This document shows, one piece after another, positions 39,727-44,345 of a stretch of 64,000 bases of DNA. Position 1 is the stretch's first letter. Every line of letters starts with the position of its first letter. Made by a program: the position numbers and the translations under genes. Origin of the DNA: a virus. Its lineage: Duplodnaviria > Caudoviricetes. The DNA lies in the IMG/VR virus record IMGVR_UViG_3300021387_000796, positions 32,001-96,000 of that record. The stretch is one strand, 5' to 3'. The notes beneath the pieces were generated by a model. The model was not told the origin of the DNA, ran no database searches, and saw only the letters and a list, made by a program, of their open reading frames with translations.

Positions 39727-40230
39727 TTAAATATTTATTTTCTTCAATTTACCGTTCATTCTATGATATACGTTTTGATTTGAACTACCTCGTAATTTCA
39801 AAGTTGTATCTCTTTTAGATTCATCATATAAGCCGTCAATAAAATAATCAATTTTACTCAATATATTTTTTATTCTTAAATCTTTCGATTTCTTTAATTC
39901 TTTGTATATAAATCCACTCCATAAATAAATTATAGTATTGGGAGATTTGTTTTTAATAAAATCAATTAAATCGGATACAATTTGTCTATTTTGTTCTAAT
40001 AAAGGTTCTCCACCCAAAATAGATAATCCCCTATTTATCTCATTTTTATGAAGTAATTCGAGAATAATTTCTTTATAATCTGAAGGTAATTCTTGTCCAC
40101 CATTTAAATCCCAAGTTTGAGGATTATGACAATGAGGACAATGAAACAAACAACCTTGACACCAAAACGACACATTGATTCCGCTGATGGAATCAACTAT
40201 GTCGTTTTCTATAATTCCTGCAAAACGCAT
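39727..40230 (-). CDS. nrdG: Anaerobic RNR activating enzyme
   Basis: QGCLFHCPHCHNP, LGGEP, IDGLY, LRGSSNQ; directly downstream of nrdD. Confidence 0.95.
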   Translation of the reverse strand: MRFAGIIENDIVDSISGINVSFWCQGCLFHCPHCHNPQTWDLNGGQELPSDYKEIILELLHKNEINRGLSILGGEPLLEQNRQIVSDLIDFIKNKSPNTIIYLWSGFIYKELKKSKDLRIKNILSKIDYFIDGLYDESKRDTTLKLRGSSNQNVYHRMNGKLKKINI

Positions 40231-41154
40231 TACTTTTTCACCCAATCGTTTAATTTATTTACATGAACGAATCTATCTTTAACTTCCATTTGCTTGCCTT
40301 TGTTAAAATGTTTGTAGTCTGTTGAAAGATAACCTGTTACACGAGCAAGATGCTCTATTTCGTTTTTATCTGCTCCACATTTAGGGCAAGGTTCTTCAAA
40401 TCCAATATTTTCATCACAACCGCATTTTTTGCAATGAGATAAAGGAAGATTCAATGCAAAATATGGTACATCTTTTTCTTTGGCATACAAAACAATATCT
40501 TCAAGAGCCTTCAAGTTGTTAGATGCGTTATCTCCAATTTCAACATATGTGATACAACCTGCTGATGAATAATTTGTCAATTGAGATTCAATATCAATTT
40601 TTTCAAAAGGAGAAACTTCCTTCCATACAGGAACATGAATAGAATTTGTGAAATATCCTCTAGGTTGAAGTTTTCCATTCTCATCTCTGTATGCAGTTAC
40701 ATTTTCAATGAGACCGTATTTTTTGACAAACTTATCGAATGAATTTTTTGACAATCCTTCTGCCGAAATTCTTTATATTTTCATATAAAGTCAGACTATA
40801 TTTTCATCTTTTATTTCTTTTACCAAAATAAAAGAGCCTCTCATTTCCAACATAAGTTGTACTCTACTCATTTATTCGCCTAAGTTTTTCTCTTAGGTTA
40901 TACTTTCGATAGTCGTTAGAGCCATCCATTTTTAGGACTTCCTACGGGGTTAGCCTGCTTATCAAGTTTAGCCTTTCTTATCAGATTATTACTCTTCGCC
41001 CGTTTAGAGAGGGATTTTCATTTACTGTCACCAGTAAAGCACCCACTTAAAATTTAGGTGTATAATAAACTCCAAAATTCAATCGATATGATTTCTTTTC
41101 CTTTAATTCCTCAAGTGCTTTTTCATACACCTCTTTTAATTTTTTTTCATCCAT
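40230..41154 (-). CDS. nrdD: NrdD C-terminal polypeptide (exon 1 41154-41056, exon 2 40763-40230; ~210 aa)
   Basis: AGGAGG-N7-ATG start; MDEKK...YRLNFGVYYTP^AEGLSK...YFTNSIH...CxxC..CPKC...RVTGYL (glycyl radical site). Confidence 0.85.
40764..41055 (-). mobile_element. ORF-less group I intron (IA2-like, 292 nt) in nrdD
   Basis: 5' exon ends ...CACCU pairing with GGGUG (U.G at the splice site); P2 TTTACTG-GTGA-CAGTAAA; P7 AACGACTA / ATATAGTCTG; terminal G. Removal restores the conserved YTP-AE motif in frame. Confidence 0.9.
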
Positions 41155-42007
41155 TTAATATCCTCCTGAAATTTTCTTTTATATTTTCTTTATTGTTATA
41201 CCAATCACTTTCTTTAACTCGAAAAAGATTTATACCTTTTTCTTTACAGATTTTATTTTTTAAATTATCTCTTCTTTTCATGTCAGGAAGAGAGTGCCAA
41301 TAATCCCCATCATATTCGATTGCGATTTTCAAATCGGGAATATAAATATCTAATTCTAATGGGAAAATTTGTTCTCTATCAGAATGAATAGAATTTTCTT
41401 TTAATTGTTTTATGAATAAATAAAGTTCATCCTCACCTTTCGATGTTTTATAATTTTTATTTACCAAAAATCCACAAGTCACATCATATTTTTCTATCAA
41501 AGTTTGTTTTCTTTTATTTATAACATCTATCAAAAACGCAGGATTTTCAACATTATATTTATCCAATAATGATTCTTTTATTTTATTCTTTCCGATTTCA
41601 GAACTAAAAATATTAGTAGAGCCATATTTTTCTAAACAAGTATTTTTCATCTTTTGTTGAATTTCCTCGCATTTGGCTGGATTATCAACTCCATATTTTT
41701 CTAAACAAGTTTGTTTTATTTTATTTCTTAAATCCTTATCATTTTGGGCGCATTTAGAACTACAATATTTTGCAAATTTTCGATGTTTTATTGTATTAAT
41801 TTCTTTTCCACAAATTTTACATTTTGGTTTTTCTGTCAAATCATTCAATAAACAAATTCCCATTTCTTTTAAAGAATAATGTTGAGGAAAATATTTTTTT
41901 AATTCCAAAAGCAAATTTAAATTTTTCTTATTATTTAATATCTTATGCCAACATCTAGGATTATCACAAATAATCTTTAAAATTTTATTTTTTATTTCGA
42001 CATCCAT
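41147..42007 (-). CDS. Free-standing homing endonuclease inserted within nrdD
   Basis: CxxC...C..C, KYGVDNP repeats, ELDIYIPDLKIAIEYDGDYWH; ATG 42007 after GGGAG. Confidence 0.8.
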   Translation of the reverse strand: MDVEIKNKILKIICDNPRCWHKILNNKKNLNLLLELKKYFPQHYSLKEMGICLLNDLTEKPKCKICGKEINTIKHRKFAKYCSSKCAQNDKDLRNKIKQTCLEKYGVDNPAKCEEIQQKMKNTCLEKYGSTNIFSSEIGKNKIKESLLDKYNVENPAFLIDVINKRKQTLIEKYDVTCGFLVNKNYKTSKGEDELYLFIKQLKENSIHSDREQIFPLELDIYIPDLKIAIEYDGDYWHSLPDMKRRDNLKNKICKEKGINLFRVKESDWYNNKENIKENFRRILNG

Positions 42008-42017
42008 AATCACTCCC

Positions 42018-44345
42018 TTAAAAACGATTTTGTTTTTTACAAAATTCGAAAATTTCTTCTTTGGAAAATTCAACATTTTCTTTTGTTAAATTTTCTATGA
42101 TTTTATCATAGATTTCTTCATTTGTGAATTTTGGACAATGCCATTCTTTTTTAAATTCAGCACATCTTTGCTTGAATAAAGATTCAATTTTTTTAGCAAG
42201 TTCCATTCCTTTATCAGTGCATTGGTCAGTTCCAATTAAAATCTGCAAAGTTTCAGCAAGACCTATCTGACCGATAGCCAAAGTTCCATGTTTCAATGCT
42301 GAACGAATGCCTTCATTTTCGTTATATCCATAGAATGTTCTGTTTTCATACATAAATGAAGCCGATTTAGGATTTTGAGAACAGATATAATTAAATCGTT
42401 CAATCAATTCATCTTTACAATCAGTTATAGCATCATCAAGATTTTTCATAAACAATTCAATTAATTTATCTTCATTAACTTCGTCTTTCATCTTCTTTTT
42501 TGATTCCATAGCAATTGTAGGCAAAACAATTGTAGCAGGTGCGATGTTTCCACGACCATCTTTGAGATGAGATAATTCTTCCGATTCGGCATTTATATCT
42601 GTACTACTATAAGTACGACAATTATGAGAAACAATTCCGCTTAAATCAAACATATCTGTTTCAGTAGTGAAATCATAAGTATTGCATTTTTCATCAGTTA
42701 CTTTTACTGAAATAATTTTATATCCATATCCGCTGACAGAATCATAAATTACATCACCTACTTTCAAATCAGTAGCAATAATTCTACCACGAGCGGTATG
42801 CAAAGGATGGTCTTCTGTGATATGAAGAATTTGATTTTCACCATTTTTATCAAATATAACTTCGTACAATTTTAATGGTGAAGATTCATCATTAAATTCG
42901 ATATTCAAAATATCAACCCATTTATTCTGACATTTAATCTGACAATTTTTTACTTGTTTATACTTTGTATATCCGATTTTATTAGATTTGTTGTTAATCC
43001 ATTCGATATTGGAAGTATAAGAATCTATTGTCTCAATTGCTTTTTTAATTGAAATGTTATTAAATTCCACACCGTTAATTTTGATTGATACAAATTCATC
43101 ACCACGAACTGCACCCATCGTACTAGGATAAGTTCTTGGGTCATCTTTATTATAACCTTGGTCGTTACTCCAATCACAGTTTACATAATTAGGATAAAGA
43201 CGTTTAGAAGTACACTCAATTGCTAACTTAAACAAATCATAATTAGGGTCATTTTCTTTAGCATTTACGCCATCCATTAATTGAAAAATTTGGCAAGGAA
43301 ATATCGAGGTGGCGTGATTACCAACACCATCAATAGTGCATTTCAAAATTTCTTTGATTAATAAGCGACCTTCTTCTAATGTACAAGTTCCGTAGTTTAT
43401 AGACGAAAACGGCAACTGGTTACCTGACCTGCTCTGCAATGAGTTTAAGTTGTGTAACAATCCTTCCACAGACTGATGAATTTCCTTTTTAATCATTTCA
43501 TAAGCATAATTTTGTACTTTTTTATTTTTATAAATTTTTCTATCTAATATTGAAATTGTTTCCACATTAGATAAAGTAATTGGTTTTTTATTTTTAATAA
43601 ATTTCAATCCTTCATTGTAATGCTTAAAAAATGATTTTCTAATATAAGGAATCATACTCCAATCAATATGCGTTACTGCAACACCACCAAACTGTTGTAA
43701 TGATTGCAATTGAATTGCAACGGCGACAAGTTGCATAGCGGTGGATAAACTATTCGCAGGTCTGATAAATACTTGTCTAGTTTTCATACCATTTTTAAGC
43801 AAATCGTCAATGGGTAGCGACAAGCAATTATGCATCCCTACAAAATATGAATCCAAATCGTGAATATAGATTCTATTATTATTATGATTTTTTGCAAACT
43901 TTGGAGAAATCAAATAATTTAATGCAAGTTCTTTCATTAAAACCGAATCGGCTTCACCTTTTCTTCCACCAAATGAAAATTCGTCTACATTTGCGTTCTG
44001 ATTTACTACATTTGTTGCATTTAATTTTTCAAAGATTTTTTTAGTGATATCAAGATTCTTAAATCTTTCAAGTTCACGACTTTTTCTATAATCGATGTAT
44101 GATTTTGCCACATCTTTATTTTCTTTCTTCAAATATTTTTCTACAAGGTCATGAATATCATCAACTTCAATTTCTTCTTTTCCTTCACTTTCGAGAGAAG
44201 ATTTTACAAAAGAAACTGTATTTTTAAGTTGTTCATCCGTAATTTTATTATCAGTTTTCATATTGTCGGATGCGAGTTTGATGGCATCCACAATTTTTGA
44301 TTCATTAAAATTTACTAATCTGCCGTCTCTTTTTCTTACTTTCAT
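42018..44345 (-). CDS. nrdD: NrdD N-terminal polypeptide (ATP cone + catalytic barrel), intein-containing
   Basis: VRKRDG ATP cone, QNANVD, IYIHDLD, HNC, RSGNQLPFSSINYG, IFPC, MG[intein]CRT, GRGN. Confidence 0.92.
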   Translation of the reverse strand: MKVRKRDGRLVNFNESKIVDAIKLASDNMKTDNKITDEQLKNTVSFVKSSLESEGKEEIEVDDIHDLVEKYLKKENKDVAKSYIDYRKSRELERFKNLDITKKIFEKLNATNVVNQNANVDEFSFGGRKGEADSVLMKELALNYLISPKFAKNHNNNRIYIHDLDSYFVGMHNCLSLPIDDLLKNGMKTRQVFIRPANSLSTAMQLVAVAIQLQSLQQFGGVAVTHIDWSMIPYIRKSFFKHYNEGLKFIKNKKPITLSNVETISILDRKIYKNKKVQNYAYEMIKKEIHQSVEGLLHNLNSLQSRSGNQLPFSSINYGTCTLEEGRLLIKEILKCTIDGVGNHATSIFPCQIFQLMDGVNAKENDPNYDLFKLAIECTSKRLYPNYVNCDWSNDQGYNKDDPRTYPSTMGAVRGDEFVSIKINGVEFNNISIKKAIETIDSYTSNIEWINNKSNKIGYTKYKQVKNCQIKCQNKWVDILNIEFNDESSPLKLYEVIFDKNGENQILHITEDHPLHTARGRIIATDLKVGDVIYDSVSGYGYKIISVKVTDEKCNTYDFTTETDMFDLSGIVSHNCRTYSSTDINAESEELSHLKDGRGNIAPATIVLPTIAMESKKKMKDEVNEDKLIELFMKNLDDAITDCKDELIERFNYICSQNPKSASFMYENRTFYGYNENEGIRSALKHGTLAIGQIGLAETLQILIGTDQCTDKGMELAKKIESLFKQRCAEFKKEWHCPKFTNEEIYDKIIENLTKENVEFSKEEIFEFCKKQNRF
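42621..43112 (-). mobile_element. Mini-intein (164 aa) at the MG/CR active-site Cys, beginning with Ala
   Basis: STMG|AVRGDEFV...HITEDHPL (block B TxxH)...TYDFTT...IVSHN|CRT; no endonuclease domain. Confidence 0.88.

Follow-up and report, generated by a model that had tools for sequence, protein, structure and literature searches.

On the minus strand of the window, the 64-kb stretch of phage DNA analysed here, nrdD of a 218-kb phage is laid out as two separately translated genes with an endonuclease gene between them, in the operon order part A, endonuclease, part B (exon 1, intron, exon 2) and nrdG. With the ORF list, Pfam and homologues, every element listed in an earlier sequence-only reading of this DNA was found where that reading had placed it. 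The part A ORF (42018..44345; like all features below, on the minus strand) matches the Pfam families ATP-cone and NRDD and the PDB NrdD structures 8p23, 9d3x and 1h78. Its 775-aa precursor, intein and tail included, carries an ATP cone at aa 1-91 and ends at a stop codon at 42018-42020. Within it lie a 164-aa mini-intein (42621..43112; aa 412-575) that is without counterpart in unsplit relatives and a 39-aa C-terminal tail (42021..42137) that is foreign to unsplit NrdD when the relatives' junctions are compared. Next comes a free-standing gene for a 286-aa Hef-like homing endonuclease (41147..42007; Pfam, PHROG and tblastn), whose last codons contain the translation signals of part B: an SD sequence AGGAGG, a 7-nt spacer and an ATG (41152..41167). 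Exon 1 of part B (41056..41154) encodes a 22-aa leader (41154-41089) and the core strand YRLNFGVYYTP (41088-41056). It is followed by a 292-nt group I intron without an ORF (40764..41055) and by exon 2 (40230..40763; 177 aa and stop), which matches NRDD positions 415-562 and Gly_radical and encodes the final barrel elements together with the Zn site and the glycyl-radical domain. The activase gene nrdG (39727..40230; 167 aa; Pfam Fer4_12 and Radical_SAM, with gene calls in near-identical contigs) starts at ATG 40230, in a TAATG overlap with the part B stop.

The matches to NRDD, ATP-cone and Gly_radical, together with nrdG directly downstream, identify the enzyme as a class III NrdD, and the columns that are invariant among 25 relatives are kept. 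The motifs are distributed over the halves as the sequence-only reading had proposed. Part A holds both catalytic cysteines, one in HNC and one in MG|C at the intein +1 position, and part B holds the CxxC...CxxC Zn site and the RVTGY glycyl-radical loop.

That nrdD is broken by a free-standing endonuclease gene is borne out at both edges of the insertion, with the part A stop at 42018-42020, the endonuclease at 42007-41147 and the part B ATG at 41154. The core of part A ends in EFKKEWH, and its W and H correspond in position to the Y-K of unsplit relatives; the added tail is therefore exactly 39 aa (42137..42021), close to the approximately 40 aa first estimated, and part A then stops. Judging from 78 unsplit relatives, the break falls in a two-residue turn that leads from a helix to a barrel strand, between helix 550-574 and strand 577-582 in a structure model of an unsplit relative. 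One relative (L034) has a natural 9-aa in-frame insertion in the same helix-strand loop, and the modelled split site appears to be permissive. The best endonuclease start is ATG 42007, 10 nt past the part A stop and behind a ribosome-binding site, GGGAG, at 42013-42017. Its product combines DUF7487 repeats (PF24308, 1.9e-16) with a C-terminal PD-(D/E)xK nuclease of the MTES_1575/DUF2726 type (PF18741, 4.4e-11), belongs to PHROG 3339 'homing endonuclease' (2.6e-37), and matches annotated Hef-like homing endonucleases of T4-like phages by tblastn. These features point to a free-standing, Hef-like PD-(D/E)xK homing endonuclease, and two regions paralogous to it occur elsewhere in the same genome.

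Eight further lineages carry the same module of tail, endonuclease, leader and intron at the identical nrdD site, making nine with the window. All eight endonuclease relatives that were looked up, drawn from a protein collection and ranging from 99% to 45% identity in different genome neighbourhoods, show the order part A with tail, endonuclease, short ORF, gap of ~300 nt and NrdD C-terminus, and sequences like them number several hundred in public data. One additional split lineage was found via IMG/VR, where a search for close relatives with the endonuclease gave distant matches only. The window's own split version recurs in five further assemblies, and megablast of the locus against phage genomes returned zero matches. 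Wherever the contig extends far enough, split lineages also retain nrdG.

Translation of part B was said to restart from AGGAGG-N7-ATG over the endonuclease stop, and each component of that signal is present. The ATG (41154-41152) stands behind AGGAGG (41167-41162) and overlaps the endonuclease TGA (ATGGATGA), giving an 8-nt overlap with the endonuclease stop, and an in-frame TAA lies directly upstream of it. The pattern AGGAGG-N5-9-ATG occurs 4 times in the 64 kb, against ~1 expected. Of the seven lineages inspected, six clearly have an SD sequence and an ATG that overlaps or directly adjoins the endonuclease stop; in L103/L104 no SD is obvious. The predicted leader of about 22 aa is indeed 22 aa long and runs into YRLNFGVYYTP, and the first 33 codons of part B are readable from its own ATG only. 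Since an in-frame stop lies upstream and LNFGVYYTP is unchanged across all lineages while its codons differ synonymously, the strand must be translated from the part B ATG. Thus the endonuclease ORF lies between two halves that each have their own stop or start signals, and a tail and a leader are present in all split lineages and at the junction of no unsplit relative.

We also considered whether the endonuclease segment might instead be spliced out, either as a second, larger group I intron or with tail and leader acting as the halves of a split intein (Dassa et al., 2009). RNR genes are known in which split inteins flank a free-standing endonuclease gene (PMC2677866), the window tail starts with Cys, and the tail-coding RNA folds better than shuffled sequences (z = -3.0). 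However, inspection of the sequence at the endonuclease junction revealed no intron core, no split-intein blocks and no other features of RNA or protein splicing. The sequence outside the endonuclease ORF amounts to only ~140 nt upstream and 58 nt downstream, has 22-26% G+C, evolves like coding sequence and changes length in multiples of three, whereas the genuine neighbouring intron is 89% conserved with covariation. By inspection, the canonical reading could not be restored with any pairing of a U-ending 5' exon and a G-ending intron. As for a split intein, the first tail residue varies by lineage (C, I, K, L, Y, S or L), no leader has a terminal HN with C, S or T as the next residue, including before YRLNFG, and tail and leader together (~61 aa) are too short for a HINT fold. 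With residue 1 unconserved and neither HN nor a +1 nucleophile present, the 'fractured gene' arrangement of Dassa et al. (2009) was rejected, and we regard removal of the endonuclease segment by any kind of splicing as very unlikely.

Part B is itself interrupted by the intron, which sits 11 codons after the split. In its P1, CACCU pairs with GGGUG and puts U.G at the 5' splice site; like all five aligned copies, the intron terminates in G, and ligation of the exons restores the frame and yields YYTP|AEGLS, as unsplit relatives read. The five copies are 89% identical, with compensatory changes in 13 of 82 predicted pairs, and the core matches sequences that interrupt split nrdD and nrdA genes of cultured phages. 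Rfam (RF00028/Intron_gpI) gave no match at the gathering score or at E <= 10 and nothing credible in 40600-42300, so that the call rests on structure, covariation and homologues. Self-splicing group I introns are likewise found in phage nrdD in T4 (sunY, with I-TevII) and in rV5-like coliphages, and coliphage vB_EcoM_TH18 has a homologous intron core at the same YGTP|AES site. The T4 nrdD intron, in contrast, encodes a GIY-YIG endonuclease and lies elsewhere, after AYE near the SRSG region; identity with the T4 insertion site was accordingly rejected.

The intein begins AVRGD and ends VSHN, and its +1 residue is the conserved MG-C-R cysteine of NrdD; relatives without the intein read STMG|CRTY. 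An in-frame insertion with a block B TEDH, a VSHN|C end and a HINT fold, it matches Pfam PT-HINT (28.7 bits) and gives an AF2 model with pLDDT 82, for which all 36 PDB matches found by Foldseek at an E-value <= 0.001 are inteins or intein-like HINT domains. Homologous inteins with 82% and 58% identity occupy the same site in L008/L009 and L013. In all of these and in the window, position 1 is Ala rather than the Cys, Ser or Thr of class 1 inteins, and the class 3 signature, a Cys at block F position 4, is absent because block F reads YDF. Lacking an N-terminal nucleophile, the intein therefore probably uses a class 2-like, KlbA-type route, with direct attack of the +1 Cys on the upstream junction; it could also be slow or inactive. 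Mja KlbA-type (class 2) inteins likewise combine Ala1, a C-terminal HN followed by Cys and a mini-intein HINT fold, and the structural matches include the KlbA intein (2jmz). The window intein shares <=20% sequence identity with any solved intein, so the route is read from the end residues only, and unlike in KlbA-type inteins, NrdD's conserved MG-C-R cysteine serves as its +1 residue. In P0003, a 95% identical relative, the intein is missing while the identical tail and the endonuclease are kept, and L008/L009, the closest IMG/VR relatives, have the intein and lack the endonuclease and intron here. These comparisons uphold the sequence-only reading's view that intein, group I intron and endonuclease gene are all real insertions in nrdD, and show them to be mutually independent.

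Might the gene simply be dead, with a recent endonuclease insertion having destroyed nrdD, the pieces decaying, and the tail being read-through into inserted DNA? Some phage RNR genes invaded by mobile elements are thought to be degenerating, according to one survey (PMC3653736). None of 80 IMG/VR relatives found via exon 2 has this split, the sister contigs L008/L009 being unsplit here; since the closest of these relatives (85-92% identical) are unsplit, the insertion may be young in the window lineage. The 218-kb record is ~92% complete, and a second RNR could therefore lie on the missing part. Nonetheless, both ORFs remain open in all nine lineages, across which endonuclease identity falls to 45%, and none of them has lost the strand, the Zn site or the glycyl-radical motif. 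Moreover, an open tail of 39-50 codons at ~22% G+C stands against an estimated stop about every 11 codons. Substitution patterns are equally difficult to reconcile with decay. Comparison of two split genomes, L098 and L099, gives pN/pS values of 0.03-0.06 for both part A and part B. Between the window and L109-L111, the nrdD exons differ by 13 synonymous changes and 1 non-synonymous change (part A alone: 10 of 11 synonymous, binomial p = 7e-7), although this within-lineage signal consists of 14 substitutions that are possibly recombination-borne. On these patterns both halves are judged to be under purifying selection, and we consider a dead gene very unlikely. Indeed, because the split recurs in at least eight other lineages under purifying selection, the two-piece enzyme very probably works.

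If so, what do the tail and leader contribute? One view is that the two-piece enzyme works and that both extensions are passive scars of insertion, the native barrel interface alone holding the halves together. In Aeh1, the NrdA-a/NrdA-b heterodimer forms without need of its tails (PMC3045599), and the tails of split nrdD are poorly conserved, their pN/pS being near 1 in distant pairs. Seven other lineages have homologous tails, of 41-50 aa, and an eighth (L102) likewise runs on beyond the core; identity between lineages is mostly 14-30%, so that the constraint may be loose. On the other hand, the Aeh1 report describes its tails as essential for activity and higher-order assembly. In addition, all lineages share a tail of 39-50 aa with the pattern helix, S/T-x-E-E turn, helix; the leaders retain an M-D/E start and an amphipathic pattern; and in the closest informative pair, the window and L097, pN/pS is 0.44 for the tail and 0.47 for the leader. 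We therefore consider passive scars an unlikely account of the extensions, albeit one to be taken seriously. The tail matched no Pfam or PHROG family, and an origin from ATP-cone helices was dismissed, the resemblance being weak (hhalign probability <4%). A relic of an exon junction at the tail end is seen in L097 and is absent from other lineages. The leader may, tentatively, be a duplicate of the preceding core helix; its summed local score against that helix has z = 3.3 relative to shuffles, with inconsistent alignment registers. It is conceivable that tail and leader dock on each other; complex prediction for helix and tail against leader and strand, from 8-row alignments, scored 0.23 (mark, 0.32), neither for nor against docking.

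Taken together, the split architecture and the selection on it fit a working two-chain enzyme that also requires removal of its intein and intron. We consider it likely that this nrdD is a genes-in-pieces class III RNR, made as two chains and assembled in trans with the aid of the extensions; trans assembly, as in Aeh1 NrdA, is the best explanation. In such a scheme, the intron would self-splice and join YYTP to AEGLS, and the intein would excise, probably by the KlbA-type attack of its +1 Cys. The resulting 611-aa part A and part B of ~210 aa would assemble non-covalently into the barrel, helped by tail and leader much as by the Aeh1 NrdA tails. NrdG would then make the glycyl radical on part B, and this radical would have to oxidise a cysteine on part A.

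The distribution of differences along the locus suggests how the module travels. Per 100 nt, L098 and L099 have 8-17 differences upstream of the split and 0-3 across tail, endonuclease and leader, and the window is identical to L109-L111 from the intein to exon 2 while both flanks differ. A module far more alike between relatives than its flanks is as expected for homing, and the best explanation of these sequences is that homing spreads tail, endonuclease, leader and intron together as a single mobile unit, which would leave the host enzyme usable. It is tempting to speculate further, if only tentatively and with less than even confidence, that this mobile unit brings its own repair kit and is widespread in animal-gut phages. 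Homing into an intact nrdD would cut the chain and yet provide a stop codon, a coupled restart and a pair of peptide extensions for reassembly. The adjacent intron, for its part, would disrupt the endonuclease target, and would therefore protect the carrier, as in collaborative homing. If true, selfish elements would have a third strategy for residing in essential genes, alongside splicing of RNA and of protein, and the module would be no single oddity but widespread in the phages of animal guts. The recurrent module itself makes a general question testable: can a selfish element neutralise its own damage via assembly tags, and not by splicing activity? For such work the locus offers a natural two-piece glycyl-radical enzyme, a set of co-evolved tail/leader pairs, an Ala1 intein with a catalytic +1 cysteine and a candidate collaborative-homing pair.

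The Aeh1 genes-in-pieces class Ia RNR was reportedly described by Friedrich et al. in 2007, and to our knowledge Aeh1 is the single case of a characterised RNR that works after being split by a free-standing homing endonuclease gene. The sequence-only reading had drawn this parallel and knew of no characterised class III case. Literature searches agree on the latter point, although genome surveys have described fragmented phage nrdD (PMC3653736; PMC12880540). The parallel itself is apt: nrdA-a/mobE/nrdA-b encodes an active enzyme with essential tails, and mobE overlaps nrdA-b (Crona et al., 2011; PMC3045599). Both systems have a catalytic RNR subunit interrupted within its alpha/beta barrel by a free-standing gene for a homing endonuclease. 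In both, the catalytic residues lie partly on one polypeptide and partly on the other, the endonuclease gene and the downstream half overlap, and the inserted DNA is low in G+C. The differences are equally instructive. The window enzyme is a glycyl-radical enzyme of class III and not of class Ia, which places radical site and cysteines on different chains, so that radical transfer has to run from a glycine in one polypeptide to a cysteine in its partner. Its endonuclease is Hef-like PD-(D/E)xK, unlike the HNH MobE of Aeh1. Whereas Aeh1 is a single case, the split nrdD recurs in nine lineages, always with an ORF-less intron 11 codons downstream.

A second comparison concerns collaborative homing, as described for F-CphI and the psbA intron of cyanophage S-PM2 (PMC6083498) and for T4 MobE and the nrdB intron (PMC2790892). 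There, as here, a free-standing endonuclease gene lies beside an ORF-less group I intron and the two are co-inherited; unlike in those pairs, the window endonuclease gene lies inside the same coding sequence and breaks it. Lastly, fragmentation of phage nrdD as such is already known. In descriptive accounts, jumbo gut 'Jug' phages have fragmented nrdD, with no RNA splicing at one junction in metatranscriptomes (PMC12880540), and a survey of split phage RNR genes includes fragmented nrdD (PMC3653736), the genes being likewise broken by introns, inteins and stand-alone endonucleases. The available parts of both contain no conserved tail-endonuclease-leader-intron module at this site and no selection analysis of the halves. 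What appears to be new here, from the sequence comparisons, is that one such module is shared at the same nrdD site by eight further lineages, with signatures of both homing and purifying selection.

The source record, which spans 218,066 bases and is approximately 92% complete, contains a single nrdD gene, located in a region with a G+C content of 22-35%, and we confirmed that this gene is split and carries both an intein and an intron. Part A (44345..42018, minus strand) encodes 775 aa that include an ATP cone and cover the NRDD profile up to about position 400, and its core ends in ...EFKKEWH, at a point where unsplit relatives read ...EFK-x-E-Y-K-LNFGVYYTP-AEGLS... Because these relatives have Y-K in the corresponding positions, W and H are the final core residues, and the 39 residues that follow before a TAA constitute the tail of about 40 aa described in the sequence-only reading. 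The conserved core is indeed interrupted by a free-standing endonuclease ORF of 286 aa (42007..41147, minus strand), which begins 10 bases after the part A stop with GGGAG ahead of it. The proposed restart of part B is also present: an AGGAGG sits within the final endonuclease codons and is followed, 7 bases on, by an ATG (41154) that overlaps the endonuclease TGA and is immediately preceded by an in-frame TAA. The arrangement AGGAGG-N5-9-ATG occurs only four times in the 64-kb window. From this ATG, a leader of 22 aa, the length previously estimated, precedes YRLNFGVYYTP, a 292-nt intervening sequence, AEGLS..., the Zn site, the RVTGY glycyl-radical loop, and a stop (40232-40230) that overlaps the start of nrdG (TAATG). 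The division of catalytic elements is as first noted, with both the HNC and MG-C-R cysteines on part A, and one barrel strand, the Zn site, and the radical glycine on part B.

The endonuclease contains DUF7487 repeats and a PD-(D/E)xK nuclease domain (MTES_1575/DUF2726) by Pfam, and it matches both PHROG 3339 'homing endonuclease' and annotated Hef-like homing endonucleases from T4-like phages. Two other regions of the whole record (G000:C1:40650-41753 and 192776-193183) match its repeat and nuclease region at 36-41% identity, each within a longer open frame (712 and 404 aa). Inspection by eye showed no TAACTAT motif ahead of the copy borne by nrdD. The tail-coding RNA just 5' of the endonuclease ribosome binding site (41995-42150, minus strand) has a predicted folding energy of -30.9 kcal/mol, versus -21.1 for shuffled sequences (z = -3.0), and the predicted pairing takes in the GGGAG/ATG region of the endonuclease. 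This fold may gate or influence translation of the endonuclease; L097, another split locus, does not retain the hairpins.

Could the endonuclease junction be removed by splicing instead? We found nothing in the sequence to suggest so. The non-ORF sequence flanking the endonuclease amounts to ~140 nt and 58 nt, is very low in G+C, and evolves in the manner of coding sequence. The canonical reading at this junction is not restored by any combination of a 5' exon ending in U and an intron ending in G. Neither the tail nor the leader has split-intein blocks, and they are too short to form a HINT fold. In our reading, it is the relatives that decide this question. While all 80 IMG/VR loci retrieved via exon 2 are unsplit at the endonuclease junction, a search of a large protein collection with the endonuclease recovered a clade of 283-310-aa relatives, eight of which were looked up (99, 69, 58, 59, 48, 49, 45, and 46% identical). 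The same gene order was found in all eight, namely NrdD part A, the endonuclease, an ORF of 32-44 aa that abuts or overlaps the endonuclease stop, a gap of ~300 nt, and the NrdD C-terminus; nrdG comes next in most, and the surrounding genomes differ. A ninth split lineage was found by scanning IMG/VR for the intron core. The residue preceding the break is the same in each lineage read, the tails are 39-50 aa and the leaders 19-31 aa long, and a clear Shine-Dalgarno sequence and ATG for part B are present in 6 of the 7 lineages inspected, the exception being L103/L104, which has no obvious Shine-Dalgarno sequence. The tails can be aligned, showing a common arrangement of two helices joined by an S/T-x-E-E turn, and M-D/E at the start and an amphipathic pattern are common to the leaders.

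In L097 (4960-4990), the tail of part A ends, past its helices and ahead of the start of the endonuclease, in a 25-nt copy (21/25 nt) of the spliced window-type exon junction (...YTP-AEG-W-S), which is absent from the other lineages and may be a scar of the origin of the module, that is, the tail, endonuclease, leader, and ORF-less intron at one nrdD site. In the closest IMG/VR relatives, L008 (2080-4700) and L009, nrdD is split elsewhere, in a variable loop behind residue 253 of part A, by a larger Hef-like endonuclease ORF with its own ~21-aa tail and a restart ATG near the endonuclease stop; a gap of ~250 nt comes next, at SRSG/NQLPF, close to where T4 has its intron. The arrangement resembles another genes-in-pieces event within this gene family, independent of the one in the window.

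Because an Rfam search returned no match to the intron (41055..40764, minus strand; 292 nt), the case for it rests on other evidence, which supports its original assignment to group I. P1 is formed by CACCU, at the end of the 5' exon, and GGGUG, which lies 10 nt downstream, with a U.G at the splice site; the final intron base is G, and exon ligation yields YYTP/AEG, the same reading as in unsplit genes. The introns of the split lineages are all homologous (65-91% identity), five copies being 89% identical despite saturated synonymous sites in the neighbouring exons, and compensatory changes occur in 13 of 82 predicted pairs. The core also has matches in cultured phages, namely rV5-like coliphages, a Vibrio phage, and Fusobacterium phage phiKSUM, where it corresponds to intervening sequences without annotation in split nrdD or nrdA genes; the homologous intron of coliphage TH18 is at the identical site, YGTP/AES. 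Three loci without the endonuclease (L026, L028, and L078) have 1.0-1.1-kb insertions at the exact intron site, two of which contain a long ORF (268 and 297 residues). The T4 nrdD intron, in contrast, lies at another site. In rV5-like Escherichia phage vB_EcoM_TH18 (L001:1700-2830), nrdD is annotated as three CDSs, one gap being that at YGTP/AES and the other, at SMG/CRSF, corresponding to the intein site of the window. The nrdD of phiKSUM (L004, 600-5140) is likewise annotated in three pieces, with two non-coding gaps, one of which matches the intron core, and at a different site it carries a large intein that contains a LAGLIDADG-like insert.

The intein called in the sequence-only reading was upheld as an in-frame insert of 164 residues at STMG/CRTY, delimited by relatives without it, that starts with AVRGD and ends with VSHN before Cys. 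Homologous inteins occupy the same site in L008/L009 (82% identical) and L013 (58%), and these also have Ala1. Scanned by itself, the intein scores above the Pfam cut-off for PT-HINT, and every one of the 36 PDB matches to its AF2 model (pLDDT 82) at a Foldseek E-value <= 0.001 is either an intein or an intein-like HINT domain, including the Ala1 KlbA intein. Together, Ala1, a block F Asp rather than Cys, and Cys at +1 make a class 2-like splicing route likely. In P0003, a 95%-identical relative, the intein is absent, the tail is identical, and the endonuclease is present; therefore, the intein, intron, and endonuclease are independent of one another.

Between the split loci L098 and L099, the nrdD exons have a pS of 0.1-0.4 and a pN/pS of 0.03-0.06; strong purifying selection has therefore acted on both halves since they were split. 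In the lineage of the window itself (L109-L111), synonymous changes account for 13 of the 14 in the nrdD exons. The tail and leader have pN/pS values of 0.44 and 0.47 (window versus L097), with saturation in more distant pairs. Differences between L098 and L099 per 100 nt number 8-17 5' of the split, 0-3 across tail, endonuclease, and leader, and 1-5 downstream. This is what homing with co-conversion would be expected to produce, and it shows that the tail- and leader-coding DNA moves together with the endonuclease gene. Similarly, when the window is compared with L109-L111 (39727-44345), the 2.9 kb extending from the intein to the end of exon 2 are identical, but part A has 11 differences in its initial 1.2 kb and nrdG has 12-17; the stretch with the mobile elements looks recently homogenised among circulating variants. 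The intron is present in 9/9 endonuclease-bearing lineages versus 3/78 loci without the endonuclease, a co-occurrence that shows linkage because the two are 100 bp apart. We hypothesize collaborative homing of the endonuclease and intron.

In an AF2 model of the unsplit relative L011 (25-row alignment, pLDDT 74), the break falls in a two-residue turn that links helix 550-574 to strand 577-582, and the intron site is in a loop ahead of helix 586-600. Another unsplit relative (L034:5900-6000) has a natural 9-aa in-frame insertion exactly in the break loop, showing that this loop can tolerate extra residues.

A literature search turned up no biochemical work on a class III enzyme that is split, in agreement with the earlier statement that no characterised case was known. 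A survey of split phage RNR genes includes nrdD among them (PMC3653736), and a report on Jug phages describes fragmented nrdD in 95 of 104 genomes and the absence of RNA splicing at one junction (PMC12880540). The genes-in-pieces interpretation, with two-chain activity and tail docking as its predictions, is supported by the comparisons presented here. The precedent cited in the sequence-only reading also holds, in that the class Ia NrdA of phage Aeh1, split by mobE, is reported to be active, with essential tails (PMC3045599). The feature in the window is apparently a variant of this Aeh1 solution, differing from it in that the enzyme is class III, is split in multiple lineages, and carries an intein and an intron in addition.
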